A stretch of 63,995 nucleotides of DNA, filler included, from Ionaspis alba (Eukaryota): assembly GCA_964255285.1 (NCBI GenBank). It is 3 parts of 3 records of this genome, joined end to end, with 100 filler letters (N's around TTAATTAATTAA, not from the genome) between each part and the next. Parts side by side here need not be neighbours in the genome. Positions count along the whole stretch, not along the records: positions 22,587 to 45,054 come from CAXUUL010000207.1; 2 more parts are not named here. One strand, given 5' to 3'. Both the position numbers and the translations under genes were made by a program. Shown one piece after another: positions 12,356 to 53,675 of the stretch. The notes beneath the pieces were generated by a model. The model worked only from the letters and a program-made list of their open reading frames with translations, was not told the origin of the DNA and did not search any database. How positions within the stretch are numbered: position 1 is the first letter of the stretch; every line of letters begins with the position of its first letter.

Positions 12356-13760
12356 GATGGAAGAATAATGGTAGCGACGCAATAACGCAGTTACAGCAAA
12401 TGAATGTACTGAGAGGAAACAGCCGATAGTAGAGTTCGGCGGAGTACTGTAGTGACGGCAAGACTAAAAAGAAAGACCGGACTTCGAACTCACGAGGGAA
12501 TAAGAAGCCATTTCTATCCATCAAGCCACCAGCAGAGCAACCACGCTTGAGAAACCAATAAATTCACAATCGACGAAAGGAGGTCGCCCCGGTATTGAAG
12601 ATCCTTACCTCACGTTGCAACCCACGAGGTTCATCCAGGTCAACATGAAGATGATCATTGGCTCATCTTCGCTCTTTTCTTTCCTGTCGATTTCATCCCA
12701 CCCAAACACTGGACGACAGACCTGGGGAAGCCGCTTTTCGATCCCGGAGACCGGGCGGGCACCTGCACGATCAAAACCAGGGAAAGGGCCGCTGCACGAT
12801 GAAGGCATTTTGCCCGATTCGGTCGTTTCCTTCGACGCCTCGCAAGCCTCTTCAATCCATCATCTCCGCTAAACCCCTGCTGGACCACGATGGCACGGTA
12901 GCTCGAGATGCCGGTCCTGGATCTTGGTTCGCCAGCTCTTTCAGGGGTTGGCGATTGGCGAGGGCACATCGCTACATTTGGGTTGCACGCTCCCGAATTC
13001 AGTGTGCTCAGGTGTCAGATGTCATCTGTCAAAGAACAGCCATCGTTCGGTCTGTTGTAAGCCATTTTCACTGTTGCGAGATGTTATGCAGTAGAGAAAA
13101 AGTCAAATAAGCCATCGTTATCGATAGCTTTTGTAAACCAGTTGGTTGGTGCGCTTTTCTTGGTATGAGAATTTCAGTTTCGTTGTGGAGTACATCATAT
13201 AGAGTACATATGCATGCTCCATGCAGCGGACTGTAACGTGGGCGACGACGGGGCTGAGATTGATATGTGCCTGAGATCCAGTCACGACACACCACTTCGA
13301 CTTGGTTAATGGTCTGGCTGATTATTCTGCCTATGTAAAGGGCCTTCAGATCCCCAGATCCTGGTTTGATGAAGCAACATGTGGTTCCGTCACCGGTATT
13401 GCTCCACCTTTTGATGTGTCCTGATAATAAAATCCTTATTCGTGCAGGAAGAGGTGGCGTTTTATCTCGGCGGTGGTTTGTTCGACGACATGAAATGGTA
13501 TCCANNNNNNNNNNNNNNNNNNNNNNNNNNNNNNNNNNNNNNNNNNNNNNNNNNNNNNNNNNNNNNNNNNNNNNNNNNNNNNNNNNNNNNNNNNNNNNNN
13601 NNNNATAATTACATTCTTTGCGCTAAACCTTCCAATAATGCTTCACATGCATTCCACACCAACATAGGGTACTCCGGGAAATCTTTGCGATAAGAATATC
13701 TCCGGCGCGATGCGTTGTTACCAAAAGAATCCAAAAACCCTCCGATCCAAGCGCCATACA

Positions 13761-16927: not shown

Positions 16928-18853
16928 ATGTTTACTGCTACTCGGCTTCAAGCTGCCACTTACCTTCTCGGAGTCTGTTTATTCTCCATATCATTCTTGG
17001 TCTTTCTCAACTCGACTGTGTCATTTGTCATTACCGACTTGATCAGGCAACGAGAAGGTGTAGGCAATGCAGTGGGGACTCTTGGCTTCGCAGATGAGCT
17101 TGTGGCCTTGATTGCTTGTCCCGTGTGGGGAATATTATCAGATCGCATCGGAGTCAGAACGGTTCGTACCCACTGTATAGATAATGCCTCAAGCTACTGA
17201 ACATTTGCAGGTCTGTGTCTTGGGCTACTTCATTGTTGGTCTAGCTCTATTCTTGTTCGTTCAAGCCAAAAATGTCTATCCTCAATTGCTACTGGCCAGA
17301 CTGTTCTTCAGCATTGGAGGCGCGGCAACTGCGACCATGGTTACTGCGATATTGCCTTCAATGACCGCTACCTCTGTGGGAAACAAAGCCAATCAGACTC
17401 TGGAAAATGATGAACATGCTGCTGGACGTCCTGTGTCGCCTTCCGTGTCTTCTGAGCTTACGATCACGCCTGCGCGGCTCGAAACTCAGTCATCATCTCC
17501 TTCTCGAGAGCAAGAGCAAAAGCAGAAGCCATGGCAGAACGCCTCTCCAACACGCTTGGCAGGCCTGGTAGGCATGTTCACTGGATTCGGGGCTCTTCTA
17601 GCCTTGGGGTTGTTCCTCCCATTGCCTGCGCGATTACAAAAGCTCAATCTCAGTCCTGGCCAGGCATTAGCTGATACATACTATATCGTCGGATCTATAG
17701 CATTGTTGATCGCTTGCTTCTGTTTCTTCGGTCTCATGAAATTGAAAGGCGAGGAAGGCAAGAGCTGGCGGGACATTGGTAGCACTCACCACAACGTGGC
17801 TGATACCTCATCACCGAAGACCCGCAGCAATGCTTACTTTCATCTCTTACTTAAGGCTATACGATTGGGTCTGCGCAACCCCTTGATTGGCCTGGGCTAC
17901 GTCGGTGGCTTTGTCGCACGCGCTTCGTCCGTGGGCATCTCTTTATTCATACCTCTATTCGTAAATGCCTACTTTATCTCGTCTGGGCTCTGTAAAATCG
18001 ATGACCCAGTCGACGTCAAATCTCAATGCAGGGAGGCCTATATCCTTTCAGCCAAGTTGACCGGAACATCTCAGCTCATCGCCCTACTCTTTGCGCCTGC
18101 ATTCGGGTACCTCGCGGATCGATATCGACGATTTCATATACCTCTGATTTCCGCGGCAATCAGCGGAATCGTCGGATACGCCAGCTTCGCATCCTTGAGA
18201 AGTCCTGAATCCAGCGGGAAATCTGGCAGTCCCTTCGTCTTTCTCATCGTGTCCTTACTCGGAATTAGTCAGATTGGCTGTATCGTCTGTAGTTTGGGGC
18301 TCATTGGTCGTGGTATTTCAGATTCTACGGATAAACATGAGGATTCTACATCATTTGGGGATGAAGGGTACACAACATCGAATGGCTCGGGTTCTCGTCG
18401 TCCCGACGTCTCCGAGGATGATCACGNNNNNNNNNNNNNNNNNNNNNNNNNNNNNNNNNNNNNNNNNNNNNNNNNNNNNNNNNNNNNNNNNNNNNNNNNN
18501 NNNNNNNNNNNNNNNNNNNNNNNNNNACAACATCGAATGGCTCGGGTTCTCGTCGTCCCGACGTCTCCGAGGATGATCACGGAGACGAACATCAAGAGTC
18601 AACGGGTTTGTTGAGCCAGGAAGCTTCATTGAACGGATCAATCATACATCTCAAAGGGTCAATTGCCGGAGTTTATTCACTCACTGGAGGAGCTGGAATT
18701 TTGTTACTGGCAAAGCTTGGTGGCTTTCTTTTTGATGCCAAATCGCCTGCCTCCCCTTTCTATATGCTTGCAGGTTTTAACGCCTTACTCCTCCTGGTCG
18801 CAATATTGTGTGGCTTTTACGAATTGGGGCGTACTCGTCTCAGTCTAAAGTAG
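16928..18853 (+). CDS. Major facilitator superfamily transporter (spliced; spans an assembly gap)
   Basis: Many hydrophobic TM segments and MFS loop motifs WGILSDRIGVR and FGYLADRYRR. Collapsing the duplicated 55-nt flanks of the gap restores the frame (DDHGDEHQESTGLLSQEAS...). Confidence 0.88.
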
Positions 18854-22486: not shown

Positions 22487-22586
22487 NNNNNNNNNNNNNN
22501 NNNNNNNNNNNNNNNNNNNNNNNNNNNNNNTTAATTAATTAANNNNNNNNNNNNNNNNNNNNNNNNNNNNNNNNNNNNNNNNNNNN
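22487..22586. other. Assembly gap containing artificial six-frame stop linker TTAATTAATTAA (22531-22542)
   Basis: N-run / TTAATTAATTAA / N-run, 100 nt in total, identical in layout to 45055-45154. Confidence 0.95.
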
Positions 22587-26845: not shown

Positions 26846-29229
26846 GGAGAGATGGCAGACAGTACGAGAATTGAGTGAGGATATCAACACGAGATCGAAG
26901 ATAGTGGCTTCGAAAAGACAAGTCTCATATAGCGGGAGAATATTAAAGCTCTGGTTTAGTTGGAATAAAGGATGTTGTCACGGTGATCGGGTACCAGTAG
27001 AAAGGGCGTAAGAATATATGTAAGAACGATAAGGGAAAAGGGAAAAGACAAAGAGGTGTGGGGACGGTGATGCTGGGATATGGTGTTAGTGGTACTCAGA
27101 CAAGAGGAAGTTCTGGAAGAAAGACGGGCGTGCAACAGTGCTGGAGATGATATTAAAAGTTATGGGGGCTGGAGCGGTGCTGGTGTAGGAGGATGGGGTT
27201 GTGGGAAAACATGTAACATCCGGCTTTAAGCTCATGGAAGAATGAGAGCCAAGACGACATGACAATACCGTAATGTGAAAGCGGTGCGCTCAGGTCAGCA
27301 ACGCAACGAACGAGGATGGCAGAACGGCGCCAGAAGATGCACAGAGCCAATGTCGAGCAAGACCAGGCACGCAATGTCATCAGCCTGATCCTTGCTGCGG
27401 TATCAGTAAGCCGAACGAGCGAGAGCGAGAGGGAACAATAACGCCGTTGGGGGAAGCGATGTCCCGCAGCAGGGACATGCCTGGTGGCGTCTCTCTGCAT
27501 CGCTAGAAGGTATATGGGTGGTGCACCGTCACAGCAGTCAGATAGTCGATAGTCGATACAAGTAGCGATTCAGTTGGGACGATAGATTGACGGTGTCCTC
27601 TCTTCTCTCCTGTCCACGGAGTAGTGATACTTTTCTTGGGGTCTTCCTTTCCCTTTCGCAACCTGTAGCCCCACTCGTCATTCAGTGGCCGTTCTTGACC
27701 CCATGAACCCAACAGTGCAAAGGAGCCAAGCCCTGCAGATGGCATATCATTGAGACTGGCGACGGACAGCGGAAAAGACCGAACGCTGGTCGGGGCTGAA
27801 GAGTCTTGACTGGACGGAGCATCGTTACGATCGGTATGATGCAAAGCATTGTAAGATTCCACTAGTCAGAGCCGTCGGGCACCATGATCAATAATGTAGT
27901 GGGTGAGGAAAACGAGAAATCGGGTGATATCCATGATTACTTGTATTAATACCCTACATGTAACTCCAGTCCAGTAGTGACAAGGGCTCCGAGCGCATGT
28001 TGTTGATCGCCATTGCCATGATTACTGGGCCATTAATGCTGCTGACGAAGCAATACCACGTGACTTATAAGACTCCCGCCGGGTATAGCCCTGCCAAGAG
28101 AACGGAAAGGCTGTCTNNNNNNNNNNNNNNNNNNNNNNNNNNNNNNNNNNNNNNNNNNNNNNNNNNNNNNNNNNNNNNNNNNNNNNNNNNNNNNNNNNNN
28201 NNNNNNNNNNNNNNNNTTTTTCTTTCTTTCTTTCTATCTACAGCTTCCTAGTCTTCAGGACTTGTGTAAGTTGAATATGCTTGCAATCACAATGCTTCGT
28301 TCACCCATCAGATCTATTCATCCACCAAGGTGTCTCTAATATATCCCTCACCGGCGACTGTGATGACACCCGCTTATGGTCTACCAAGTTCCGCACTCCT
28401 TCCGGCTCGGACACTCGGCACCGGCTGCACATGCCTGCCTGCTCAGCCAACGTGAAAACATTGAGGAGCTTCGTCATCTTCAGGCGCAAGGACTATCACG
28501 TAGCTTGCAACCCATCTCTAGCTGACAACTGCTAGTCCGCCGATTCATAAGGCTGTACCTTTGCTTAGTCTTCACTTTAGTCGATGTTGGATTGCATGAC
28601 TTGCTTGTTGCTTCCCTATCAGTAGCTGGGCTTGCTTCAAGATCCTCCGACTTTAGGCCTAAGCTTCGATTCATTCTTTTTTTTCTTCTTTCTTTTTTCT
28701 GATCGTTATGGGTTGAGGGTACGGGGAGGTGTTCTGTAGGCTCACCTGTGATACACGCCATGACCGATGTTGGGGTTTCCAGCGACTTACTCACCGTGAC
28801 TGTAACCCTAAAGATTGATGGATAATCTATCAGCTCAGAGGAGAGAATTGGGCGGAGTGTTGCTGGGCTTTGCAGTGTAGAGTGGGTTAAGAGCGATCAG
28901 AGACGAGGAGAGGCGCATAGAAATCGTAGAACTCATAGAAGGCACCTGTCCAGAGAATGCAACGACACTTTATCTCGGGTCAGTCATACACCAACAAATA
29001 TTATGCCTACAATGCTGTCGATCAATCGTCAGTGGTACAAATCTATTACAGTCAAAGGGATGCGGGTCGCTCGCTTGAGCCTGCCCCCGCCAGCAGCCCC
29101 AGCACAACTACTACCTCCAACTTTCGGTTTATCGTTGATCCGTCCTACCTGACTTCACCGGCAAGCACAGATAGGAAGGTATGTTTAAGGCTCACACGAT
29201 CGCAACGAACTGTCCCGGCTTTCCTCGTA

Positions 29230-30982
29230 ATGGCGGAACGTGCCAAAAAGAGCCTGGACTTCCCACATCGGGAGGCTACGTCGGTGTCCCCTCGTTCGAG
29301 CGAGGAACCGCGGTCGCCACCAAGTCGTTCCCCTTCCATGCGTTTGAATTCTATGCCCGCCCCGTCTCCAACCCATCGCCATTCCTTCAGTGATCAGTTT
29401 CGCGGCATTCCGCCCTCTCCCCGCTCTAGTCGAAATTTCTTCCTTTCTTCGGCCGGCGTGCAGGACTTGTTGAATAACCCTCCGAAGGCTGGTTCGGCCG
29501 ACCCATCCTTCCTCGGACGTGACTGGCATGGAATATCCGTCGGCGAATTGGTGGACGCAAAGGATGTCCGTTTCGTGGGAATGGAAACGGGGATTGAAGA
29601 TGCCACCAACGTCAGTCATGATTTTGTGGTCATGAACGTCCACATCCGCCACGGAAAAGCAAACGGCTGACTATCTTTCAGCTTTTGATCGAATCTGGCG
29701 TACCTGTCCTCCTAATCTCTTCTGCTGCCTCGGACAAATCTGCCATTGGCACGTTTGACTACAAAGATCTCAACCAGTACCTGCTCTTTGCCACCGGGAG
29801 CCTTCGCCCGGATGAGGAGCACCTGGAATTCTTCCAAGACCTGGCGAAAAAGGCTCAGCGAGGCTCCAAGATACCTGTGAAGGATGCCAAAAGTTTGGGT
29901 ACTAAAGAGCCTTTCGTGATTCTTCCCCACACAGCCAACCTCACGGCAGCGGTCGAGAACTTTGGTGGAGGTGTACATCGCATCGTGATTGTCAGGGAGG
30001 GCACGAAACGGGTTATCGGTGTTCTTAGCCAATTAAGGCTTGTGAAATTCCTCTGGGAGAACGGGCCGAGCTTCCCGGTGCTTGATCAGCTCTACCATCA
30101 AACCATCAAAGATCTTGGTATCGGGTCTCAGAACGTCATTTCCATTAAGTGGGTATTCACGGTCATCACTTGTGGTAACCCGTTCTAATCGACGTAATGT
30201 TCAGCGGGGACAAACCCTTGAAAGAAGCCTTGGTGCTCATGGACGGAGAGGGTATCAGCTCTCTAGCCGTCGTTGACAATCAGCAGAATGTGATTGGCAA
30301 TATCTCTACAGTGGATGTGAAGGTATATGCTCAAGGCTAGCTGTCACTTGATTGATGGGTTGTTTTTTTAACCAGTCATAGCTTCTCACGAAATCGAGCT
30401 CAGCGCCTCTTTTGGACAATACCTGTATCCATTTCATTTCGGTCATCTTATCCACACGAGGCATGAATGATGGCAAAGACTCCTTCCCAGTCTTTTACGT
30501 CAGCCCATACTCTACTCTAGCACACACCGTAGCCAAGCTGGTTGCGACCAAATCCCACCGGTACTCCACTTCTTTCATTCCCAAAGAAAATATCAAACTG
30601 ATGATGGAAAACCAGCATGTGGGTCGTCGATTCCCCCTCACCATCTTCTTCCGGACCTCCTACCCCTGCTATTCAACCCGCCGTCCTACACGCACCCCAC
30701 CAAGTCGCCTCGGTCCCGCCAGCGACTCCATCCTTCACGGCTCTTCCGTCCACACCTTCAGTGCCAGCGTCGGCACTGCCAGGCGCTCATATGTCAGGCC
30801 GTCTTTCCGGCGTGGTCTCTCTTACCGATGTCTTAAACCTTTTTGCACGTGCGAGTGGGCTCAATCCCAACGATCCCAATGAGACCAGAAGGCATAGGCG
30901 GAGATCTAGTAGTAGCTCCCTTGTCAGGGGGAGCCTGGACTCTGCAAGGAGCTCGAGCGTGGATGTTTCGAAGCAGCGCTAA
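29230..30982 (+). CDS. sds23: CBS-domain protein Sds23/Sds24, spliced
   Basis: QDLLNNPP...[65 protein letters not shown] and [14 protein letters not shown]. Confidence 0.9.
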
Positions 30983-31778
30983 GCGACTATGTCTTTCCGG
31001 CTTGTTGAGAAGCACTTGCTGAGACGTCGGTTGCTTTCCTTCTCGAGGTTTCTGTTGTGATGAAAAATCATGGTTGATACACTAATGGCGTGCAAAATCC
31101 AACAGATAGTGAGCGTAGATGGCGATAGCGGAAGGGTTCTCACGATTAGTCAAAGCTCTCGATGAGATTAATGCTAACTTCTGCCTCTCAATGACACAAA
31201 CAAAACGGTAATTGAGAAGCATTGCGGATTGTGCTTTGAATGACATTAAACAGCCACATGAATATCACCTCCTGGCCTTGGCAGAGTCACGATTTACGAT
31301 TCCTGACACCGCGTACGAAATTTCACAGCACAATGACGACGAAAGCATGGTTCTTTAGGTGTGTCCGGCGAACACAGCATCGGTTTGACGTGCACATGAT
31401 CGTGGGATCCTCAACACATTGCATTGTACACCACCCCTCCATCCTTCCAGGCTATTGGAGGCGCGAGCCTAACCAGGTAGTCTACCTAGTCATTCACATA
31501 TGTTTCATCTTCTCGTTCGGTCGTTTCGTCACAACGACACGTGATTCTTCGTCATCCAAAACCGCGATCTCCTTCCTTCCTGCTTCATCTTCTTTCTCAT
31601 CACTCTCACCCGCCTTGCCTTAATCTGAACCGTCACCTCCCTTCATCTTACCACTCCCGGCCATTTCTTGTATCAGGTATCCGTCGTGATCAGCCATAAG
31701 CTGTCTGCCCATCGCTAGATCAGTGATCTTCGGTTCCCAACACTCCGATACTGTCAATCTTTGTCGACGACTGCAACC

Positions 31779-33419
31779 ATGAAGGCCATCTTTTGCCTCA
31801 TAGTACTTGGCCCACTTATATTGAATCTCGTCTCCGCTGCTCCCCTTCAAGTAAGTTCAGTCCCAGGCATGAAAGCTTTGTTGTCCATACATACCTACTC
31901 ATTTATCTTAGAAGACGGCCACACGCAGCATTGTGGAATCTGGAGATGTGCTTTCTACTAACTGCCCTTGGTGCGTGCCTGACGTGATCTGGAGTGAGGG
32001 ACAGGACAGTAATCACCGTACGGGAGAAGGTGCTCAGCTGGCTTGTCTCGATGAAGGCTCTCGTACAACTGAGCCAACACTCTGTTGCTCCAAGGCTGCT
32101 CGCTTTGGCGTCTGTCTGAGAACGGTGCCAGCTGCCCCGCAGAGGCGCCATGAGGTAACTCACGGTCACCAAACCCTCCGCCGCTTCTCAGGACAGATCG
32201 TTGATAGCCGAAAAGGTTCTGAATCTAGCAACCCGTGCACCACGTGTACCAATCAAGAATTCTTGCCTGCTTGAATCAGAGAGAACCGTCTGTGACGGAT
32301 CGAAGCGTACCGACATGGCCTCCACAGACGGCAGATCTACTTATGGACCCAATCGTCGTCTGCCAGAGCTTGGTGGGCTATTGCCTATGAACGATGCGCA
32401 GAATGTGGCTAGCATTACTGACACCAATGTACAGAACTCCGTAGCCCTAGCTCGGAGAATTCCATGGACACCGCGCGTGACTTTACCAATCGTCTGGCTC
32501 ATCTCGCCCAAGGTCCATGCGCTCTGAACTCAGGAGATCTGGAATGTGGCGATCTGCACTCTGTGCCATGGACTATACTTAATGCGATCTTGCACGAAGC
32601 GCTATTTTGCTACGAGGTAAACTAGTGAAACCTGGGAAAGCCGCCTGCTATACTCACACACTAATCGCATGAAGCATCCGGACGCCGCGATTTGTATTCC
32701 TGTGCGAAATTCTGCCGACGATAGCACGAAACGCAGCGAAAATTCATGGTGCTCAGAGGTGAGCGAGCTAATCTTACACAGGTATCCTCCTCGATGCGAC
32801 ATTTCAGAACTGACTTCCTAGAAGCATCCACGCTTTGCACCGTGCATCCCGACCACGCAAATCGCAGACATGAAACGTGATGAGTCTAGTTGGTGTTCAA
32901 TGGTAATCCAGGACCACCCCAGAAAGACTCTCTGCCTACTTCCCGTTACTAAAATCATCAAGCATCCCGAATTCGCATCCTGTATCCCAGTGGAACAGAT
33001 CAGCCAGACAAAACGAGACAAATCCACTTGGTGCTCGATAGTAAGGATGGGCAACATTCAAATTAACTCTGGTTACGTAAAGTCTCATGACTGACCTGGT
33101 AAAGCATCCCAAGTTCGCGCCTTGTATCCCAGTGAGGGCGACTCACGGCAGCGGTTCGAAGCGTGGCAGCGTTAGTAACCTTACAGTTGGTATCGATGGA
33201 TCTATCGTTAACAAGACGATTTATTAGGCAAATAGCATTTTTTCGAACATGCTACGTATCATCTCACAAGAGGAAGAGCGCCGCAGTGTGAGTAGAAGTC
33301 TATCTCGTTCCGAGCATAATGCCAATCACTGATTGCCCCAGCTTTGCAATGCGTCAACATCGTGCGAGATCTACCCCGGATGCGCAGAATGCATCGGACC
33401 TGGCTTCTATGGCCCATAA
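31779..33419 (+). CDS. Secreted Cys-rich repeat precursor protein (Kex2-processed repeat protein-like), 10-exon model, about 365 aa
   Basis: Signal peptide MKAIFCLIVLGPLILNLVSAAP. Exons 31779-31850, 31912-32154, 32216-32372, 32435-32616, 32675-32758, 32825-32902, 32963-33040, 33105-33170, 33228-33287 and 33342-33419 splice GT-AG into one open frame with repeated WCSxHPxFAxCIP units separated by KR. The exon 2/3 and 3/4 junctions are the least certain. Confidence 0.75.
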
Positions 33420-33987
33420 CTGCTTTTAAGCCCGGCCTTGTCTTCGGGAATCAGGACTTGCTCTCTTGGCTGAACAATTCTCCTGGGTGGACAGTAACAT
33501 CTGGTGGTTCTGGTCGGACTGGCAAGAAGCTATCTGGACCGGGTAGACATGGTTTGGGACGACCATGATGTCTGTAGCTGAATTGGCCGTATCAAACTAG
33601 CATGGAAGAACAGATAGTCGAGTATGCTGGTTACTTAGAGTGAAACGTATTGTGACCTCTCAATTTCCCTGCAGTGACTTGCGAGAAAACGATACTCGAA
33701 GTTCTCATCAAGCATGTCGTTAGAGCAGAACTCTAAAACGTGTGTCACTAAAACAACCAATCCCTGAAACTCTATGACGTCTTGAGCCATGCCATTCCAC
33801 GCACCTACTCTGTCGTTCCAGGAATATTACTTTACTTGCATGCGGATACTAATTAGAACTTAAGCAGCGATCTACTCCTTCTCCAGTCTTGACAGTCCCG
33901 GTCTGCTCCACCTCTGATCTGCCTCGGCCATGTTTGCCAGGTCTTGCTGAACACGCGAATGCGGATGCCACGAAGCCAAACATTATT

Positions 33988-35775
33988 ATGTACAACGTCC
34001 GCTTGGGGCCTCGAACTTTTCGTAGCATCTGCAGCGTTTGTCGTCGAGCAGATAGACTCGATGATATGAAATTAAGCTCTTGCCGCCGCTTCGCTAGCCA
34101 CTCATCGGCTCTCCTTGCCACCTCTGCTTGCCCATTCCGGACCCGCTCCCTCTGCCTCATCATCATCGTTGGGGCCGGTGCGGTATTCTACCAAGGCTCC
34201 GATCGGCTAGGCTTGAGAGAGCTCCAGGCAGAATCACCGCCCGCGGCCACCGAGATTGTGATCGAGAAGTCGATCAAGAGAAATAAAGGACTATCGAAAG
34301 AGGATAATCGCGAGCTGATCAGCTCGCAACATTTGCAGGTCAAAAGAAGCTGGGAAAACCCTGGAGTCTATGCTTGGGGCTCCAACTCAGGACGGGTGGT
34401 TGCGCCAGACTCGGAGGAGGCATTGATCAGATCACCCAGAAGGATACCCTTCTTTGACGGAGTGCTCCTACGAGATCTCAAGCTAGATAGAAACTTTGGT
34501 GCTGCTATCACAGAAAAGGGCGACCTCTTGCAGTGGGGTACGGCATATTCTCTCGACTCCACGGGGCCGACGCCGACCTTGACGGGGAAAGACCTCATCT
34601 CCATCCAGATCTCTCGTGATCGGGTAATTGGCCTTTCTTCGTCTGGAAAGGTCTTTTCGCTCCCAGTTGCCAAGGCGGATCAATTGGCAGGTCCAAAACC
34701 TCGTGAGAGCTGCTGGATCCCGTTCTGGAGTTCGCGATCGCCCATTTCCTACCGCTCCGTACAGCCACAATTATCGGGCTGGTTCGACCGGGTCGTTGCC
34801 ATCTCTTCGGGACTCGAGCATCTCCTACTTCTCACCTCCTCTGGCCGCCTCTTCTCCGCCGCTTCCAGCAGCACTGAATTTCCTTCACGCGGCCAGCTCG
34901 GTGTCCAGGGGTTGACTTGGGAGCATCGACCTCCCGGACCCTACGATCAGCCTCATGAAATCACCACTCTTCGGGGGTTTGACATCCGCTGTATTGCTGC
35001 CGGCGACTATCATTCCCTGGCAGTTGACTCCGAAGGTCGTGTCTTCTCTTTTGGCGACAACTCCGTGGGTCAATTGGGTTTTGATTACAACTCCGAATCG
35101 ACATTTGTCGACTCACCCTCCCTCCTACCCATCCAGAAGCTTTACACCGGCAGCAATCAAGTGGCTCGAGTGACCTCTGTGGCTGCGGGAGGTGTGAACT
35201 CTTTTTTCACTATCGATGCCACCCGGCTGGCGGCTCGGGGCGAAAGAACTCAAACAAGAGGCGTCGGTCGTGTTACAGCCGATACCTGGTCCTGCGGACA
35301 AGGAACCTATGGCGGACTCGGCAACGGTCGTTGGACCCATATGCAAGGCACGCCTACCAAGGTGAAGTCGCTCTCGGGTCTCTATGAATTCGATGAGAAG
35401 CACAATTCGGTCATCCCCATTCGCTTGTCACGTTTCAGCGTGGGCAGTACGCACGCCTCCGCGACCATGGATAACGTCACCCACGTTGGCGCGCATTCAG
35501 GAAGCGGTGAGAACGACACAAATTGGGGTGCCGACGTGCTGTGGTGGGGTGGTAACGAACACTACCAACTAGGTACAGGAAAGCGAAACAACGTCAGCCA
35601 GCCAGTCTACATCGCGCCCCTGGATCTAACGGCGGATAAGGAGAAAGGGAGGCGAGAGGAGCACAGGTTTCAGATCACACCGAAGAAAAGAGTGAATGTC
35701 AATGGGCGGGCGGTGGATCTAGAGCAGAGGATTGAGTGTGGAAGATTTGTCAGTGCAGTGTACTCAGGTGTATAG
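33988..35775 (+). CDS. FMP25: Mitochondrial RCC1-repeat protein Fmp25
   Basis: Intronless ORF: Arg-rich presequence, TM segment, SSQHLQVKRSWENPGVYAWGSNSG, RCC1 repeats (IAAGDYHSLAVD, FSFGDNSVGQLG, WGGNEHYQLGTG). The exact start ATG is uncertain. Confidence 0.85.
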   Translation: MYNVRLGPRTFRSICSVCRRADRLDDMKLSSCRRFASHSSALLATSACPFRTRSLCLIIIVGAGAVFYQGSDRLGLRELQAESPPAATEIVIEKSIKRNKGLSKEDNRELISSQHLQVKRSWENPGVYAWGSNSGRVVAPDSEEALIRSPRRIPFFDGVLLRDLKLDRNFGAAITEKGDLLQWGTAYSLDSTGPTPTLTGKDLISIQISRDRVIGLSSSGKVFSLPVAKADQLAGPKPRESCWIPFWSSRSPISYRSVQPQLSGWFDRVVAISSGLEHLLLLTSSGRLFSAASSSTEFPSRGQLGVQGLTWEHRPPGPYDQPHEITTLRGFDIRCIAAGDYHSLAVDSEGRVFSFGDNSVGQLGFDYNSESTFVDSPSLLPIQKLYTGSNQVARVTSVAAGGVNSFFTIDATRLAARGERTQTRGVGRVTADTWSCGQGTYGGLGNGRWTHMQGTPTKVKSLSGLYEFDEKHNSVIPIRLSRFSVGSTHASATMDNVTHVGAHSGSGENDTNWGADVLWWGGNEHYQLGTGKRNNVSQPVYIAPLDLTADKEKGRREEHRFQITPKKRVNVNGRAVDLEQRIECGRFVSAVYSGV

Positions 35776-36231
35776 GAGGCCGTTGGTGTATCGCTGAGCC
35801 AACCTATAGCTTTCCATGGCGGATCTGAAATTTCAGCTGGAAGGACGAAGCGTTTGAGCTTTATTTTCATCATGAAACTTTTAATTGATCTCTAACTATC
35901 CCCGATGTCTGCCTCTGCCTTGTATGGATCTGTTGCATCAATATATCTTTGTAGCGCTGGCTAATACACTCCGCATTCGCGTGACCGCTGGCTATCTCTG
36001 AGGCACATCTTATATCCGTAGGAAAGGATACGTTCCCAAGCTTTTAATAATAGCGCAAAACTAGGGCAAGGTGGTCAGTACCCTAGGACCTTAGTTCAGC
36101 CCTACAATATCAACCTTCGGTCAATCATTTGTCCAGCAACGAAGAAGTACAAAGTTCATTCAAGATAGAGCATGTTTCAGTTGCATGTAGCCGTCGCCTA
36201 GGCTCTGGCGATCTCGAGTCCCGTTCAGATC

Positions 36232-37573
36232 ATGGAGGCTTCAGACGTGGAGGAAGGGTCGTTACAGAGAACTTTCAAAGATCTTGTCGCTGGTGCGGCC
36301 GGCGGCATTGCCCAGGTTCTCCTCGGTCAGTGAGCAAGATATGTGGTTCTGTTAAATTATCAGTCAGCCTCCGTAGAGCCTTTTAGGTTCTCCAATATTC
36401 GAGCTTTACTATTTTACTTTACAGGCCTTGTTCATCCAGTGTTTCAAAGCTGTCCTTGGTCATTGTTCACCGCCATGATGCTTGCCTACATTCCATGTCG
36501 TACCAATTATTATTCGGGCATCATGTACTAACTTCAGCGCCTTTCGAATGACCAGGACAGCCATTCGGTATGCGCTACTGCACACTTGGCCATGGTCCTC
36601 CTTTTGACAGAGCCAGACATCGTCAAGGTCCGCTTACAGACAACGACTCAATACTCGACCGCGGTTGACTGCGCTAGCAGAATCTTCAAGCACGAAGGGG
36701 CTGCGGCATTTTATAAGGTATCGGAGTGGCTTGCAAGAAATGTGTGGTTCGCTGATCAAATCATACATAGGGCACCTTAACCCCACTTGTGGGCATTGGG
36801 GCTTGTGTACGTATCTAGATCATTTTCTATAGCCACGGTATATGCGTTTAACCTAGCTAGGTCTCCATCCAATTTGGCGCCTTCCACTGGGCCAGGAGGC
36901 GTTTCGAGGCATCAAATGTAGCATCCAAGCATTCCGATCCCAGCCTTTCGTACGGCCAGTATTATCTCTCCGGCGCGTTCGCCGGCATATCCAACTCCAT
37001 GATCTCCGGTCCGATTGAGCACGTCCGCATTCGACTTCAAACACAACCTCATGGCGCGGGTCGGCTCTATAATGGCCCAATCGATTGCATCCGCAAGATT
37101 TCCGCGCATGAAGGCATTTTTCGTGGTCTCTATCGTGGCGAAGCTGTCACGATCTTGCGAGAAGCTCAAGCTTACGGAATCTGGTTCTTGACCTTTGAGT
37201 ACATGATGAATAGGGATGCTGCGAGGAACACGATCAAGAGAGAAGATATCTCCAGCTACAAGGTCGCTGCATACGGTGGGCTGGCAGGCGAAGCTCTGTG
37301 GATGGCAAGTTATCCCTTTGATGTGATCAAGAGCAAGATGCAGAGTGATGGTTTTGGCAAGGACATACGATATCGTAGCATGCGAGACTGCTTTGCTCAA
37401 ACGTGGAGGCTCGAAGGACCGAGGGGTTTTTGGAAAGGAATTGGGCCTACTCTGCTCAGGGCCATGCCTGTTAGTGCTGGTACTTTCGCCGTGTCAGTAC
37501 TGAATACTCCTTCACATGGGAGTGTGCTAAACTTTCTGATAGTGTTGAGGCGACGATGAGAGCTCTGGGGTGA
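36232..37573 (+). CDS. Mitochondrial carrier protein (Ymc1/carnitine-acylcarnitine carrier subfamily), multi-exon
   Basis: Three carrier signatures: PFDIVKVRLQ (assembled through 12-nt microexon 36556-36567), PIEHVRIRLQ and PFDVIKSKMQ. Ends ...VEATMRALG*. Confidence 0.92.
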
Positions 37574-37802
37574 TATCGAAATCCAGGGTTCTTTCGCCGA
37601 CGACCGACCAGGCATTGAATCACCACCTCGCTACGTAGGCGTGACCCGCTCTAGGGCAATTACGTATGGCAAAGGCTCCTTCGCGTGCAATGATGCGAAG
37701 CAACACTGCATCGACCACGCAAGGGAGTGAGTGCATTGTGTTCGAATACACTATGTCATAGGATACAGATGTCAACTGAGCACTGGTACTCTATTTGAGA
37801 GA

Positions 37803-38962
37803 TTACCTAGCACTGATCGCCTCCCCTAATCCAAACTGCATCGGGACATAAGTAATTTGGCCCTTCAGTGCTTTCTCTGTCCGCAATTTCTGTCCTTCTT
37901 CCCCAGCTCTGCCTAGTGTACCCGCGATGACCTGCACGCACCGTAGACTATCGTCATTGGCAGGGATAGGATAGGTGACCCATGTGGGGTCGGCATCTGT
38001 ATCGACAATCCCAATGGTTGGGATATGGTTTAATCCACACTCATGCAACATCACCCAGTTCTCCATCGGGTTCAGACAGACAACTAGATCCGGCTTCAAC
38101 ACCGAATGATCACCCAGTTGTTCTCGGAAACCTTCTAAATCCCGATCGTACTCGTCCACGACTTTGAGCTGACATCCACCAAGTATCTGCTGTCCGTTCG
38201 TGATACTACCCGGGATCCAGCGCTCGAACAGATGACAGCCTCCTGCCAACCTTGCTGCGTTAACAACGCATCTGTCCTGGCCTGGTCTGGTCCCCACAAA
38301 CAGAATCAAGCCGCCTCGTTCCGCGACACCTGAAACCACTCGACATGCCCGCCTCAGGTGCGACGCTGTTACGTCAAGAGATATGATGTGAATCCCCTGA
38401 CGGATTCCAAAGATGTACCGAGAATTCATAGGATTCCAAAGAGAAGTTGAATGTCCGAGATGGGATTGTGATGCTAGTAGGAGCTCCAGAGTGATAGATG
38501 ATGGGGAAGGAGGATTGGAGAGGAGTGCATGAGGCTGGTAATAGGGCGCAATCTCGCTACCGAGAACACCGATAGTGCTTTCTGTGAAAATCAACATGAT
38601 TAACTGACAGCTTGGATATGATTTGGATCAAGGAAGTAATACGTTGGTGTTTAAGGGCATAATGTTTCTGGACGATTGGACCGGACTGGAACTTTGATGT
38701 AGGCCGTGTCACCGGATCCATCCTGCAAGCCGGTGCGATTCTTTGATCCTGTACCCGGGACTCAACAGACCGGATTTCTTTGATACTGTTTTCGACTGCT
38801 GCTTCGATCGCATCTACTCCACTGGCAAACGGCCGAACCCACGACTTGAGTGGATGCAAGGTCAACAAGAGCCCTGCTTAATTGTCAGAATCCGCAGAGT
38901 ACGTTAATGTGACAGTCTCTATCTAGCTAACCTTGCCGTAGTACTGTCTGTCTGATGATCAT
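37803..38962 (-). CDS. MRP4: Mitochondrial ribosomal protein uS2m (Mrp4), spliced
   Basis: LLASQSHLGHSTSLWNPMNSRYIFGIRQGIHIISL, LFVGTR, ERWIPGSITN, IPTIGIVDTDADP and YPIPANDDS are S2 signatures. Confidence 0.93.
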
Positions 38963-39153
38963 GCTGGGAAATTATTACGACGGTCGTGGTTGGAGATGGA
39001 AAATGGCGGTCCAGGTGGGTTTTTGGATGTTTCGTGTGTGACGGGCTTGGCACCCATGTTTGGAAATGATGGGCGCCTTTGCCAGTATCTATTTCCTCTA
39101 AGCACACATGTCTTACCACAATCCACATTCAATGACGATATTTCGTTTCAATA

Positions 39154-41936
39154 ATGTACGACGATCCCTCATACCATGCCTTCGTACCCAGCTCACAGCA
39201 TGAAGCGGAGAAGCCATTGTATATCAGCCACCAACGGAAGACTTCTTTGATTGCACAACCAAGTGTACGCATGGCATTCTAGCGTATTACTCAAATAGTC
39301 TCTAATTGTATACACAGAATAACCCTCAAGCTACCGTTAGCCTGTCACAAGTGAAGTTAAAGACGATCGGAGACCAAGACCGAATTTCTAGCCCACCGAT
39401 AGCAAGTCCTAGCCGTCGTGCCCAAAGTTACTCCGACTTCCACGATGCAGCTCTGCTCGTGCTGCGGGCGAGTCCGCAAACTACAGAGCAGCACAGCAGA
39501 ACATTCGAGAGAAATGTTAGGAACGATCTCGAAATCAGCCACTGGTATCAGAGCCTCGAGGGCGATCTTCATGAAGCCAGCCATGGTAAATACAAGTATG
39601 ACAGTCCAAAACGACCCAGATGACTAAGAACCGGGTGACTGACATGCTAAATCGTCGTTCTTAGAGCCTACCGGAACGAGCTCAACTCTTCGAATTCTTA
39701 CCTATCATCGCTTTCAGGCAGCGCCTCGACCGCCCTCGACCTGCTAACCGAGTTATCTGAATCCTTCAAAATCGTCGGGGCTCAGACAACGGCTTTTCAG
39801 AAACAGTGCGAGAGGATGCTTGCAAGCCAACAAGCTGTTACGGCGCTGTCGGACCAAATGAGACATAACCTTGATTTCTACAATTCTCTTGGGCCGATCA
39901 CAAGGAGACTCAACGCGCCAGGGGCTGGAAACTTTGTCAAGAGTAAAGAATTTTCTGGGATTTTGGCTCGACTTGACGAGTGCCTTGAATACATGGATAC
40001 TCATGTACGGATGTGTCCGGCACTCAAGTGACAAGATCAGCTAATTTGATCAGTCATCACAGAGAGAAGCCGATACCTATCGATCGCGTTACCGACTGCT
40101 CTTGACAAGAGGTCTGACATTAATTCGACTGCACTTCGTGGGTGCCCTACGGGACATCGCACAAGATGTGACGCGGCGAATTGCTGATCCACAATTAACA
40201 GACACGACCATGTCGGCACTTCTCTATGCCAAATTCCGAGTTGGCGCACCGGAGCTGAGGGATATCGCACATGAGGTTCGGCGAAGAGCTGTAGTGCCGG
40301 TGAAGGCTGGACCCGGTCACGACGTTGAGTATCAGAGCTTGATGAATGAGCTATACACGAGTTACTCTGCTACACGAGGCAAACTCGTACTTCCATTGGT
40401 TCGGAAACAGATCACTCAGATCTCTATAGGATCAAATACACCGAAGGACCTAGCATGGTTCGCGCGGAGTAGCATAAGTTACACCAGGGGTGTTTGTTCT
40501 GACGAGTATAACCTCTGGCGCGAATGGTTCGACGACGAGGATGGTCTATTCAATCTTCTCGAATCTGTATGCGAGCCTCTCTACGATCACTTAAGGCCTC
40601 GTATCATCCATGAGAATCAGCTTGCTAAACTGTGCGAGCTTTGCACTTTGATACAGACACGTTATATGCGTGATCAAGATGATGACTCCGAGAGCGTATC
40701 CGTCACCCAATTCGACTTTTCCGCCTTGATCCAACCTCTTTTAGAAGATACGCAGACACGAATAGTCTTCCGTACTCTAGCAATCCTAAAGGATGATATT
40801 CAGAGCTTCAAACCAAAGCCAGAGGACCTTGACTACCCTTCGCACAAGCAGACGCCCGGCTTTTCCCACAACGAGACGAACGGAGCGGCCACTTCGGGCA
40901 GAAAAGTCTCTTTGCCCAGAAACAAATCATCGAACTCCGCAGATTCTGTGTTGCTTGATGACGGCGATATTTTAAAAACACACCACGACTACGATGCTGG
41001 ACCTATACTCATAGATTGCTACCCTACGTTGAAGAGAGCAATTTGGCTGCTCAGTCGCATCTATCGACTCGTGAATGTACGTTCTCATTCTTCGAAACTT
41101 TTGTGCCCACAACTTATCCAGGATATCAATAGTCGTCTGTCTTCGACGATCTTGCGCACCAGATAGTCCACGAGACCACTATGTCGCTACATCGAGCATC
41201 TACCCTCCTTGCTTCACCTGCCAGTGGTTTGGACGCTCAGCTTTTCCTCCTCAAGCACCTTCTTCTCCTCAAGCAGCAGATAGTAGCTTTCGATATCGAA
41301 TACGTGACCCCTGAGGTTGCCTTCGACTTCTCAATTGCCACGAACACTTTTTACGAGTTACGCGACCGGGGAGGACTCTTTGATCCAAGGGTCCTCTGGC
41401 GTTTGGTCGGAGGTGGTCTCCTACCGCGAGTCGTGGAGAATATGCTGGATGCAAAAGTGGAATTAGACGGACGACTTAGAACGGTGATAAATGCTTTCAC
41501 TATAGACTGCGCCTACAGAATAACAGGTACGATGGACGAGTTGGTCACGATGACTCACGTAGAAGGGCCTAAAAGCGTGGTTCAAAAGGTCAAGCTGGCA
41601 GCAGAACGCGAAGCGCCTGCAATACGTCGCAGACTGGATGAATATCTTGACGATATTCGAACGAAGGAGACGCTGATCGGCGCCGTTCGAACCCAAATGG
41701 TGCAGAACTATGAGGCTTTCTACGAATGGTCAATGACTCAGAAGAAAGCGATTGAAGAAGCAGTGAGTACGAAGGGCAAGGGGAGGGGGGATGATCTATG
41801 GGATGTTGATACTCTCGCCGAATGGTCTGAAGAAGTCTTCCAGGCCCAACAGCGAGAGCATGAGGACGTAATGGCCAGAGGAGCCCGCCGGAGTCCGGGT
41901 ATCAATAGAAGTATGACTCGCAACGGGAGCATTTGA
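39154..41936 (+). CDS. COG3: Conserved oligomeric Golgi complex subunit 3 (Sec34), spliced
   Basis: LGPITRRLNAPG, RLDECLEYM, YRSRYRLLLTRGLTLIR, EPLYDHLRPRIIHE, CYPTLKRAIWLLSRIYRLVN and AQLFLLKHLLLLKQQI. Confidence 0.93.
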
Positions 41937-45054: not shown

Positions 45055-45154
45055 NNNNNNNNNNNNNNNNNNNNNNNNNNNNNNNNNNNNNNNNNNNNTT
45101 AATTAATTAANNNNNNNNNNNNNNNNNNNNNNNNNNNNNNNNNNNNNNNNNNNN
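45055..45154. other. Assembly gap containing artificial six-frame stop linker TTAATTAATTAA (45099-45110)
   Basis: Same N/linker/N layout as 22487-22586. Confidence 0.95.
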
Positions 45155-47403: not shown

Positions 47404-49744
47404 ATGTTCTTGAATACGGCTCTCTTCTGGAGCTTGACATTGGTTTGGGCATTGCTTAGTACTCCTGCATTTGGCGGTCCTGTACATGCCCAGCCACATG
47501 TCAAGATTGTTGAGTCTCGTGATGTTCCCAATAATCGTGTGCTTACAGCAGTGCGAGGAACCCTGGCGAAAAGAGTCCAGGATACAAGTGAAGCGTTTGT
47601 GCTGAAGTCAGCGTTGACTCTGGACTATGCAGACAGTATGTGTCCCCGCTTCTCGTGATTAAGTGGCCGAAGCTTCCCTATTATGGATTGTTTGGCCCAT
47701 AATTTGAATCTGCTGACGATTATGATTGCCACAGAAGAGTCCCTGGAGGGTGCTGAGCCTTTCGGTGCCTCAATGCTGGTTGAAACGAAGCATCCAGCAC
47801 TAGTTCTGGAAGACATCGATAGCTATCTGACATCCATTCAATGCTCCCGATCTGGTATCTCGCTTGGCTTCCAATCAAGCCAGCAGTCTATCGCAGCTGA
47901 GAAGGCCTGGAATACATCGGATTTCCTAGTTTTCACCTCTCATCGGGGCTGCAATAAAAACGGCGAACGGCAGCCATATCTGTAAGTAATGTCATGAAGT
48001 TCTTGTCTCACTCCTTGCAGCCCCAAAATCTTGCTGACTATTCAGGGTCTCTGCTGTCTCGTTTGATCATAAATTAGCCTCTGCTACCCTGACGGCTCAG
48101 CCTGTTGGTTGGGAAATGACATATGTTACCCTCGAGGTCAAGTTTGGTGTTCAAAAACCTATCCGAAATCCAAACACGGAGCGCTCCGTTTCGACTTCTG
48201 CTCTCTCGAAGCGAGCGTCGAAAGACATCAGCTTCTCCCTAATCAACAAGCAGCTCATCAGACTGTACGTCGTCCCTCTTGCATATATTCGTCTAGGGAG
48301 TATTAACTTTGGTCAAGCACTGTACCGGGGACAGTAATCACATCAACTTGCAAGACTTGCACAGGAACCGGCACGTTTACTATTCAAAGCGGTGGCTTCA
48401 AGATGCACAATTCTGGAGGCTTCTTCGGAGGCATTCTGGGCGGACTCAAAGATATCAGCCACATCGCAGAATTTGCTTTTGTGGACATAGTCGCAAACAA
48501 CCTTCGTGCAAGTTTCGACATAGAAACAACAATTCAATTCCAAAAGGTTTTCACTTTTCATTTACTTGGCGGTCCAGTTGGTCTGCCGGGTTTCTCTGTA
48601 TGTCATACTCTCGTCAGCATTCAATTGCATGTGGCTAAGCACATCATATAGATCGCCGGTGTCTTTTCCATCGGTCCATCGATTGACCCTACTATTGTCG
48701 CAGCGATTAAATTGGCCGAGCCACTCACCTTCGACCTTGGTTTCGACATGGCCGTTCCCGATGGAGCTAGCCTCAATATCGACATCGTAAACGTCGCGAG
48801 ATCGTCGGCATCAGGATTGTGCGTATTTACCGGGCTATCTAGGAATTCGTTGTCCCCCCTTGCTAATGATAGCTAGTGATGCTACGAAGTTCACCGAACA
48901 TCCACTACAACTTGAAAGCAAGATCGGCTTGAACTTCAGTCTGGCTTTCCGACCTGTCATAGAATTTGGTATATCTGTTTTCAAATTCGACTTCGATCCA
49001 ATCCAGGTATTTGCCGACGTACCAAAATACGACGGAAGTCTGGTGCTCGTCTCCGGCGTAGACGACAATTGTAACCCGTCTCCAGCCAGCACCGGCCAGC
49101 ACCTATCATATAATGGTGACTTCAGCTTCGACATTGGCGTTGGCGCAAAAATCGACCTTACCGACAAGATTGCCTTCGCTCCCCAGCATGTCATTGCTAG
49201 TACCAAAGTCTTCCCAGCGTCCACTTGCTTCGCAATCGGTCCCAAGGCAACGCCGGTTGCCATCGTGTCGACTCCAGCTGCCGTTGTAACTAAGGAGTCG
49301 GTGTCAGCCCTAGACCCCACTACGAGTGCTGCCGGCGTGACTACGGCCGCAGTCCCAGAGACAACTGCTGTCTCAAACTCCACCGTTCCTTCATCTTCTC
49401 GATTCACCCTCAAACACCGCAAGTCTACAGCTACCGTGGGTCCTCTCTCGACTGCCTTGCCTAGTGGTGGGCTCACCACTACCACTGTGGTATTGTCGCG
49501 TCTCACCACGTATCCCGTGACAATCACTCAGATCTCTAACTCATCAGCCTATACTACGACAGTAGAAACCACCTCCGCTATTGTCTTTACTAGAACAATG
49601 ACGTATTGCGCTACTTGTGCTGCCCCAACAGCGACCGGTTCTGGGGACGGTCCGTGGTTGAATGGTACCGCTGATGGTTCTGCTCCGCCAACAGCCGCCA
49701 TCCCTCGCCTTCGTCGTCGGCTGGGAAATTTTCGATTGATTTGA
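47404..49744 (+). CDS. Secreted fungal protein (DUF7029/DUF7223-like beta-rich domains, Ser/Thr-rich tail), multi-exon
   Basis: Signal peptide MFLNTALFWSLTLVWALL, then LTLDYAD, PALVLEDID, AEKAWN...FTSHRGCNKNGERQPY, a CTG...CKTCTGTG segment, GLPGFS|IAGVFSIGP, and a Thr-rich C-terminus. Confidence 0.7.
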
Positions 49745-52005: not shown

Positions 52006-52648
52006 TTAGAACCTCTTTCTCTTTACGCGCAGGCGTTTCTGGTGGCGGGATGATAGGGCGTCTGGATGACTTTTGCGTTGGTCTTTGTCCGTCGAATTTA
52101 TGCTTGGAACTGCGAATCTGTTTCGCAATACAGCTAGCGCACTGACACCATGCTTTACGGACGAGATAATCATCTTGCCAATTTCTTCTTATTTGCTACC
52201 GTGATTCAGGTTCTTAGTATCGCCAGTCGCTGATCGAGCAGGAATAAGCTGGGGGCGGTCCAGAGGCTTTATGGCTGCTGGGGCTGGCTGGCTGAGGCTT
52301 GAAATCGCCGTTTGCGGTCATGTCCAACGGGTTCGAGGTGGCCCACCAAATACCCAGCCCGACAAGCACATCTGGGTCATGAACTAGATGGCTGACACTT
52401 TGTTGACGCGGTGTAGAGAATACGTGCTGATCTTTTGTAGTTGTTTGATGCTTCAACTTTGTCTGGCACCAAACGAGGGTTTTCGTGTCGATCACCAGTC
52501 TTTTCATGATGTCTATAAATCTTTCAATCATCCCGAGCATGTCTATCGACATTCAGAGAGATCTGAATAACTTTCCTAGTCTTTCAAGAAGATCTTCTCA
52601 CTTACCAAATCGATATCAATCTCTGTCGATCTCACTCATCACTGCAAC

Positions 52649-53675
52649 ATGTGGTTTCCTATCTCCTTTCTCGTTTTGGGAGCTGCTGCCCTCCCGACGT
52701 CTCTAACATCTCCAAAGGATCTTCCCAAAGTCAATGCAACTGTCCTCCCTACCGGCACTGGCCCTAGCACAAATCTTACCGATGTTCCCTCACGCCATTG
52801 CGGAACCGGGCCACCATCAATTCATCTGGTCGAAGCACATCGATCCCTGCGCGCCGATGCTCTTCACAAACGGGCGATCAACAACAACAGGAAGTACACG
52901 GTGAACACCTACTTCCATGTTATCACAAGCACGGCCAAGTCCAAAGCCATCACCCCTTCTATGATCTCCAACCAATTCGGTGTCCTGCAACAGGCTTATG
53001 CTGCCTCCTCCATCAATTTCCGCCTCCTCGGCACCACAAACACCATCAACGATACCTGGGCCAAGGATGGCGCTGACGCCGACATGAAATCAGCTCTCCG
53101 CCGCGGCAACTACTCCACCTTAAACATCTACTTCCAATCCGATCTCAGCAACATCGCCGCAGGCCAGTCATCCCAGCTGCTGGGCTACTGCACGCTGCCC
53201 ACAAATGTCACCTACGTGCCCTGCTCCACCTGCGCGCCTCGCGAGTACCCAGCGCAGGACTACGTCATGGACGGCTGCAACATACATGCCGGGACCATGC
53301 CAGCGGGTTCGCTCAATGGTTACAACTTAGGCAAGACCGCCGTTCACGAGGTCGGGCATTGGTTTGGCCTGTTGCATACTTTCCAGGACAACACGTGCAA
53401 CAAGGGTGATGCGGGCGATTTCATCGATGATACGCCTCAGCAGAGCGTGCAGACGGATGGGTGCCCGGCGAAGAAGGATAGTTGTCCCGGACTACCGGGT
53501 TTGGATCCGATACATAATTATATGGATTATAGTACTGATAAGTGGTAAGTATCTGTCTCCTATACACTTTTATCTACGAGATCGATGCTTATACGGTTGC
53601 AGCTATGAGAACTTCACCGGCGGTCAGGTGCAGAGGATGCAGAATATGTTCCAGACGTTGCGATTTGGCTATTAA
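52649..53675 (+). CDS. Secreted zinc metalloprotease, family M43 (pappalysin/ulilysin-like, Mep1 type), 2 exons
   Basis: Signal peptide, propeptide CGT cysteine switch, KR maturation site (LHKR-AINN), zinc motif HEVGHWFGLLH and Met-turn HNYMDYS. Intron at about 53545-53601. Confidence 0.95.

Follow-up and report, generated by a model that had tools for sequence, protein, structure and literature searches.

The window analyzed here, a stretch of 63,995 bases from the lichen-forming Lecanoromycete Ionaspis alba, very probably holds a real, intron-rich gene that had previously gone uncalled. Ten + strand exons between positions 31779 and 33419 join into a single frame of 1122 nt (373 codons plus a stop), and we hold with roughly even confidence that the predicted product is a 373-residue pre-pro-protein of the kind known as Kex2-processed repeat proteins (KEPs). 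It is probably a new orphan precursor of this class, with an unusual gene architecture. An initial annotation of this DNA had proposed a secreted precursor spliced from ten exons. Reading the region directly, listing its open frames and joining + strand exons through GT..AG introns, we recovered the single frame with nine introns, at 373 codons instead of the roughly 365 given earlier; the C-terminal reading quoted in that annotation reappeared exactly in the spliced frame.

Repeat exons under protein-level selection

The strongest evidence of a translated frame is a codon-by-codon comparison of four repeat exons, exon 5 (32675-32758), exon 6 (32825-32902), exon 7 (32963-33040) and exon 8 (33105-33170), which together with introns 5 to 7 form an array at 32675-33170 on the + strand that was delineated by protein alignment and by DNA alignment of its units. 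Among these exons, the proportion of synonymous differences (pS) is 0.62 to 0.97, i.e., saturated, and the proportion of nonsynonymous differences (pN) is 0.27 to 0.40; the ratio of the corresponding rates (dN/dS) is 0.28 to 0.43 in the three of six pairs for which dS could be computed. Residues that never change are encoded differently from copy to copy, as seen for P (CCG/CCA/CCC), A (GCG/GCA), C (TGT/TGC) and I (ATT/ATC), and further along the unit for another P (CCT/CCG/CCA), K (AAA/AAG), R (CGC/CGT/CGA), C (TGC/TGT) and S (TCA/TCG). All copies are free of frameshifts and stops. Since pS is saturated, pN is lower and codons vary at invariant residues, the frame has evolved under selection on the protein, and very probably the gene is real. 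The repeats are old duplicates whose peptide motif, with its dibasic site and its two cysteines, has been maintained by selection, which acts on H-P, A, C-I-P, K-R and W-C-S.

The DNA alignment of the four intron-plus-exon units extends this picture to the splice signals: the GT, an ACTNA branch motif 10 to 14 nt before the acceptor, and the acceptor junction AAG/CATCC are kept in all units, at a pooled pairwise identity of 0.48 for the introns, whose remaining sequence has diverged, and 0.55 for the exons. Within the window, the motif HP..A.C[IVL]P is found at four places, all in the candidate gene, and it is missing from 992,441 bases of related fungal loci. Tandem Repeats Finder reported no array here because the copies are too diverged; at the protein level the repeat cores are 55 to 64% identical to one another. 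Because the four copies occupy two different genomic frames, with a stop interrupting the frame in intron 5 and a shift of frame across intron 7, only splicing brings them into one reading. Intron 6 (32903-32962) is 60 nt long, in frame and stop-free, and its retention would separate two repeats by 20 additional residues.

A codon-usage score in bits per codon, for which 5547 codons of housekeeping open reading frames (ORFs) of the window served as the training set, agrees with the frame. The spliced gene scores +0.062 in frame versus -0.22 and -0.33 in the other two frames, and its introns score -0.40 to -0.46. The same ordering holds for individual exons upstream of the array, namely, exon 2 (+0.072 versus -0.16 and -0.62), exon 3 (+0.033 versus -0.44 and -0.16) and exon 4 (+0.089 versus -0.13 and -0.45). 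Two DNA data sets, one spanning the whole stretch and probably its source and the other made up of six short, low-depth contigs, are identical to the window and carry neither variation nor splicing information.

The predicted precursor and its expected products

The predicted protein has a single strongly hydrophobic 19-residue window, at residues 3 to 21 (Kyte-Doolittle mean, 2.38), with K at position 2, a hydrophobic core of 16 residues and small residues at positions -3 and -1 before residue 21. By these features the N terminus is a predicted signal peptide, as the initial annotation had also proposed. The five highest hydropathy windows all lie within residues 1 to 23, and no later transmembrane segment is predicted from hydropathy. 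Downstream of the signal segment there are 22 cysteines, and the eight C-x8-C loops claimed earlier, including three upstream of the repeats, could be counted again in the spliced frame: seven are simple loops, and the C-terminal one has a third cysteine inside. Shuffling the residues gave a mean of 1.27 C-x8-C pairs, and none of 20000 shuffles reached eight; for the three upstream pairs, 0.43 would be expected (p about 0.006, post hoc). Similarly, 3.0 [KR]R sites would be expected where eight are found, and 0.87 KR sites where five are found (p = 0.0007). Because of the homology among the repeats, the loops and dibasic sites cannot be counted as independent events.

Each repeat exon has the same layout, HPxFAxCIP followed by a variable tail, KR, a 4-residue spacer and WCSx, and the intron always falls between WCSx and HP and hence inside the C-x8-C loop. 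Cutting the protein in silico at every [KR]R yields nine fragments of 83, 41, 17, 85, 26, 26, 28, 21 and 26 residues with 6, 2, 0, 4, 2, 2, 2, 0 and 4 cysteines, respectively; as all counts are even, each fragment could close its own disulfides. Fragments 5 to 7, which occupy model residues 247-272, 273-298 and 299-326, are the repeated peptides and would shrink to 24 to 26 residues on trimming; they open with four polar residues and W, continue with the ring C-S-x-H-P-x-F-A-x-C and I-P, and finish with a variable tail. A partial repeat copy precedes these three complete ones, and a diverged copy, with the ring followed by I-G-P, stands at the C terminus. Residues following KR or RR are S-E, D-E, D-K, G-S and S-L, without an XA/XP spacer. 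As judged from the alignments, the evolutionary unit is the exon (HP...KR...WCSx), which is circularly permuted relative to the presumed product, where WCSx and HP are joined between two KR sites. The permutation accounts for F-C-Y-E at the end of exon 4 and for the end of exon 8 immediately behind KR-G-S.

By analogy with the established alpha-factor/KEP pathway (PMC6339444), secretion, cleavage, oxidation and activity of the products may proceed as follows. A signal peptide at the N terminus, with its likely cleavage site behind residue 20, would lead the protein into the endoplasmic reticulum. Each local C-x8-C pair could be oxidized to a 10-residue ring. Kexin (Kex2) in the Golgi would then cleave behind each of the eight KR/RR sites, leaving terminal basic residues for a Kex1-type carboxypeptidase to remove. 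The expected products are three paralogous ring peptides of 24 to 26 residues, along with a related 26-residue, four-cysteine C-terminal peptide and larger N-terminal fragments that carry three more loops. Once outside the cell, the peptides might act as a diversified set of signals or defense molecules: diverged cores beneath conserved ring-forming residues suggest a diversified ligand or defense set and not many copies of one signal. More tentatively, and with less confidence than we have in the precursor itself, it is tempting to speculate that the gene represents an unseen family of Kex2-released, disulfide-cyclized W-C-x8-C-I-P peptides of 24 to 26 residues, each repeat on its own phase-0 exon, which would serve the lichen fungus as a diversified extracellular signal or defense cocktail, possibly directed toward the photobiont or competing microbes. 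If so, with one phase-0 exon per repeat, the duplication or skipping of exons could alter copy number as well as content.

An intact secreted Cys-loop repeat protein, wall-associated, adhesive or effector-like, with KR as a surface or binding feature, would share the signal peptide, the loops and the selection just described. Such a protein would also accommodate the N-terminal 60% of the sequence, which does not consist of clean KR-delimited repeats, the loop at model residues 194-203, which has no dibasic site after it, and the low number of full repeats (three). We nevertheless consider it unlikely. KR is invariant in the four repeats, with varying codons, while the adjoining positions vary. 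The P1' residues that follow the sites are S, D, D, G and S, which suit kexin. Moreover, the even cysteine count of every dibasic-delimited fragment speaks for separate peptides, and no Pfam or PDB domain was found in the pieces tested.

Search for relatives

The homologue searches suggested by the initial annotation, with tblastn and with a profile of the repeat, returned no relative: the lowest E value that tblastn assigned to the spliced model in 80 related loci was 1.8, and of 11 pattern stretches that the repeat profile matched in metagenomes, none was confirmed. In the protein collection, a 90-residue ORF spanning two repeats had no match at an E value of ≤0.001 among 1.84 billion representative proteins and none at an E value of ≤1 among the longer proteins, and exon 2 had no match among the longer proteins either. 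Pfam searches with four pieces of the gene gave nothing above noise, PDB sequences gave no match to two pieces at an E value of ≤10, and in the ESM Atlas the best score was 0.76 for the repeat ORF, with no usable match for exon 2.

How much this absence means depends on what the searches could contain. The downstream neighbor, an intronless gene of the Fmp25 type, has named relatives that are all Lecanoromycetes, with best identities of 71 to 74% (Varicellaria, 71%; Toensbergia, 74% over 92% of the query; Xylographa, 68 to 70%; Trapelia, 69%); Lambiella is also among the genera nearest by this protein. Collection entries of Ionaspis alba look like ORF-type calls, which are unsuited to a ten-exon gene. 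With nearest relatives this distant and a collection this ORF based, orphan status is weak evidence of novelty. KEPs, moreover, are numerous and highly diverse. The claim of a new peptide system stands insofar as no relatives were detectable in these searches, and it is weakened by the distance of the nearest relatives and by the existing diversity of KEPs. Taken alone, the candidate is one predicted orphan gene in a class already large and diverse. It also illustrates how small multi-exon secreted genes can be missing from ORF-based protein collections, since the intronless neighbor is present (entry P0001) and no piece of the candidate is. Peptide signaling in lichen fungi is almost unexplored, and if confirmed, the gene would offer lichen biology a concrete candidate for a secreted peptide signal or defense molecule.

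Several observations weigh against a KEP-type precursor. The signal peptide is predicted by rule of thumb, the three complete repeated peptides are the minimum of the KEP screen discussed below, and the conserved KR could have a purpose other than cleavage. Concerning the gene model, 2417 open GT..AG paths connect the ATG with the 3' end of exon 4 under lenient donor and branch rules, and a G at +5 is missing in three donors (GTAACT, GTAAAC and GTAATC); in four introns inferred in neighboring housekeeping genes, 51 to 71 nt long, G is found at +5 in 4/4. The codon score of the gene is weaker than that of the housekeeping ORFs (0.10 to 0.17). Finally, no relative came up in the protein, structure, family or metagenome searches to lend comparative support, and the Pfam and PDB queries were unspliced pieces, in which the junction-spanning loops were never intact. 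Some of these points, namely, the missing homologue, the weak codon score, the three weak donors and a single intron of 37 nt, together with the position at a synteny breakpoint (see below), would also be expected of a nonworking relic or of an unexpressed frame at a rearrangement junction that has by chance stayed open after losing its function. We regard this as improbable, more so than the intact protein. A frame of 373 codons remains open across nine introns, no repeat exon carries a frameshift or stop, and the repeats bear the marks of long-term constraint at the protein level (saturated synonymous sites together with conserved motifs and splice signals).

Exon-intron structure

All nine introns are GT..AG introns, of 61, 37, 62, 58, 66, 60, 64, 57 and 54 nt, and eight of the nine are in phase 0. 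The 3' half of the gene model is well anchored, and the 5' half (exons 1 to 4) is less certain, as it is not unique by sequence. In the predicted splicing of this 5' half, exon 1 (31779-31850, + strand, like all exons) provides the ATG and the signal-peptide-like N terminus in 24 codons and is followed by a consensus GTAAGT donor. Exon 2 (31912-32154) is provisional; it has 81 codons within a 120-codon open frame, carries six cysteines including the first C-x8-C pair and ends just past RR. Alternative acceptors are present for it, and the intron that follows is only 37 nt long, with a GTAACT donor; a 61-nt alternative at 32155-32215 would drop eight residues. Exon 3 (32192-32372), likewise provisional, lies within a 122-codon open frame and holds the second C-x8-C pair, then KR and then RR. 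Exon 4 (32435-32616), provisional on its 5' side, contains the third C-x8-C pair, and its 3' end, F-C-Y-E, supplies the first cysteine of the first repeat loop.

From the donor GTAAAC at 32617 onward, the model enters the repeat array. Intron 4 (32617-32674, + strand; 58 nt, GTAAAC...CTAAT...AAG) is homologous to introns 5 to 7, and exons 5 to 8 have been described above. Were intron 8 left unspliced, the frame would end at a stop at 33225-33227. Exon 9 (33228-33287) consists of 20 codons without cysteine and ends in RR-S; it is flanked by GTTAGT...TTAAC...TAG on one side and by a GTGAGT donor on the other. Exon 10 (33342-33419) encodes the four-cysteine C-terminal segment with the diverged loop copy (C-x8-C and then I-G-P) and the stop codon. 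Exons 5 to 10 are in phase 0 at both sides, so exon skipping would also preserve the frame.

Upstream, a pyrimidine-rich (CT) tract at 31560-31625 lies about 160 to 220 bases before the candidate start codon and is overlapped by a 127-codon open frame without a Pfam match (31240-31623); this zone is possibly a promoter or 5' untranslated region rather than coding sequence. An Rfam scan of 30900-34100 found no RNA family, and a promoter and terminator scan of the bacterial type, irrelevant for a fungus, stayed at background level.

Genomic neighborhood

The candidate gene lies between an sds23-like gene and FMP25, both of them housekeeping genes by Pfam. The latter, at 33988-35772, encodes an RCC1-repeat protein of the Fmp25 type, whose relatives span all 595 residues from the ATG at 33988. 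This full-length protein is not in the protein collection, where the corresponding entry, P0001 (569 amino acids), begins at an internal Met, which looks like the start choice of an ORF caller.

The initial annotation had argued that a position between housekeeping genes makes the gene lineage specific, and it had proposed checking the same interval in relatives. Metagenome contigs were scanned with the Fmp25 neighbor, which yielded 80 loci at 51 to 72% identity, 48 of them with at least 3 kb of upstream sequence. The argument turned out to be too simple. An sds23-like gene was near FMP25 in 0/80 of these loci, and COG3 lay divergently upstream of FMP25 in 35 of the 80, at a median distance of about 1 kb. 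In the window, COG3 is found 3.9 kb downstream of FMP25 on the same strand, separated from it by genes for a mitochondrial carrier and mitochondrial ribosomal S2 (33988-41933). Such a gene order suggests that this lineage underwent a local inversion or rearrangement. Going by these loci, the sds23-FMP25 junction is itself a lineage-specific rearrangement, with the candidate gene within it; because the adjacency is peculiar to this lineage, the interval is not comparable across relatives.

For the remaining genes, 237 ORF translations of the window were scanned with Pfam (8 + 84 + 145), covering ORFs of at least 70 codons apart from 8 that overlap runs of N and from those of 70 to 119 codons outside 14000-51000. 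No match to DUF3328/UstYa, tyrosinase or methyltransferase was found among them, in keeping with the earlier statement that no DUF3328/UstYa gene is nearby. Two ORFs may encode secreted or less common proteins, one at 47659-47982 with a DUF7029 match (E = 9e-20) and a metallopeptidase-like one at 52580-53545 (Peptidase_M43, E = 9e-9). The window contains nine runs of N of 44 to 100 bases, including 13505-13604, 18427-18526, 22487-22586, 28117-28216, 45055-45154, 55614-55713 and 60330-60429; one lies about 700 bases upstream of the sds23-like gene.

Comparison with known systems

Secreted polyproteins that are cut at KR into several nonidentical peptides are exemplified by Ece1 of Candida albicans, the precursor of candidalysin. 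To our knowledge, the Ece1 peptides are not Cys-loop peptides and have no sequence similarity to the candidate.

A resemblance is also found in the precursors of two-Cys alpha pheromones. These pheromones occur in several classes of Pezizomycotina, with an x6 ring as in C-HLPGQG-C and C-GGRGTP-C, and alpha pheromone peptides are quoted as 9 to 24 residues long (PMC6339444). Like the candidate, their precursors are secreted, carry KR-delimited repeats and have a core that starts near W-C and ends near P-C; in the candidate, the core starts with W-C, and the second cysteine is preceded by P or S. The gene could thus encode the strongly diverged alpha-type mating pheromone precursor of this lineage, whose W-C...P-C ring would address a Ste2-type receptor. 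No description of an alpha pheromone from Lecanoromycetes was found in the literature searched (with 0 mentions in PMC11515122), so comparison with an ordinary pheromone of the lineage does not speak against this reading. Still, we judge this reading highly unlikely. Compared with the pheromones described in that source, the candidate has a ring of x8 instead of x6, no G-Q and no XA/XP (Ste13) spacer, and its peptides of 24 to 26 residues are at or above the quoted range, with a variable tail of 9 to 13 residues after the ring and cores that differ strongly from one another instead of being identical copies.

Repeated cores between Kex2 sites behind a signal peptide are also the hallmark of dikaritin precursors (UstA type) and of Epichloe GigA, and the candidate might accordingly be the precursor of a ribosomally synthesized and posttranslationally modified peptide (RiPP), dikaritin-like or other, with its tailoring enzymes elsewhere in the genome. 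Such a separation is conceivable: a study of lichen RiPPs reports UstY-type clusters without a repeated precursor and raises an unlinked precursor as a possibility (PMC12048977). Of all the explanations weighed here, we give this one the least credence. The neighbors of the candidate are housekeeping genes, the 237 ORF translations contain none of the tailoring genes looked for, and its cores are much longer than those of dikaritins, at 24 to 26 residues, and contain cysteine. Tyr, the cross-linked residue in ustiloxin-type cores, is absent from the three repeated cores.

The definition of KEPs is that of Le Marquer et al. 2019 (PMC6339444), and a survey of them was given by Umemura 2020 (PMC7329392). 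According to the former, the KEP screen asks for a signal peptide, no transmembrane segment, 4 or more fragments, of which 3 or more are repeated, and repeats that make up at least 15% of the length. All of these features are found in silico in the candidate, with nine fragments, three of them repeated, and repeats covering 3 × 24/373 = 19% of the protein; as in KEPs, the related KR/RR-delimited fragments, at least three in number, are clustered in one region. The earlier description of a KEP-like build without XA/XP spacers is supported. Neither survey uses "intron" or "disulfide" in its main text, "cysteine" appears only in PMC6339444, where it refers to pheromones, and a limited search of the available supplementary text of both did not find the motifs of the candidate. 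Within the limits of this search, which is no proof of being unpublished, one exon per repeat and an intron inside the loop are two features without counterpart in the two surveys. What would set the predicted precursor apart from other KEPs is that its cores, different from one another, each hold an x8-spaced cysteine pair and that each repeat has its own exon, with a phase-0 intron inside the loop. Confirmation would extend the KEP class by a cysteine-looped, exon-modular type.

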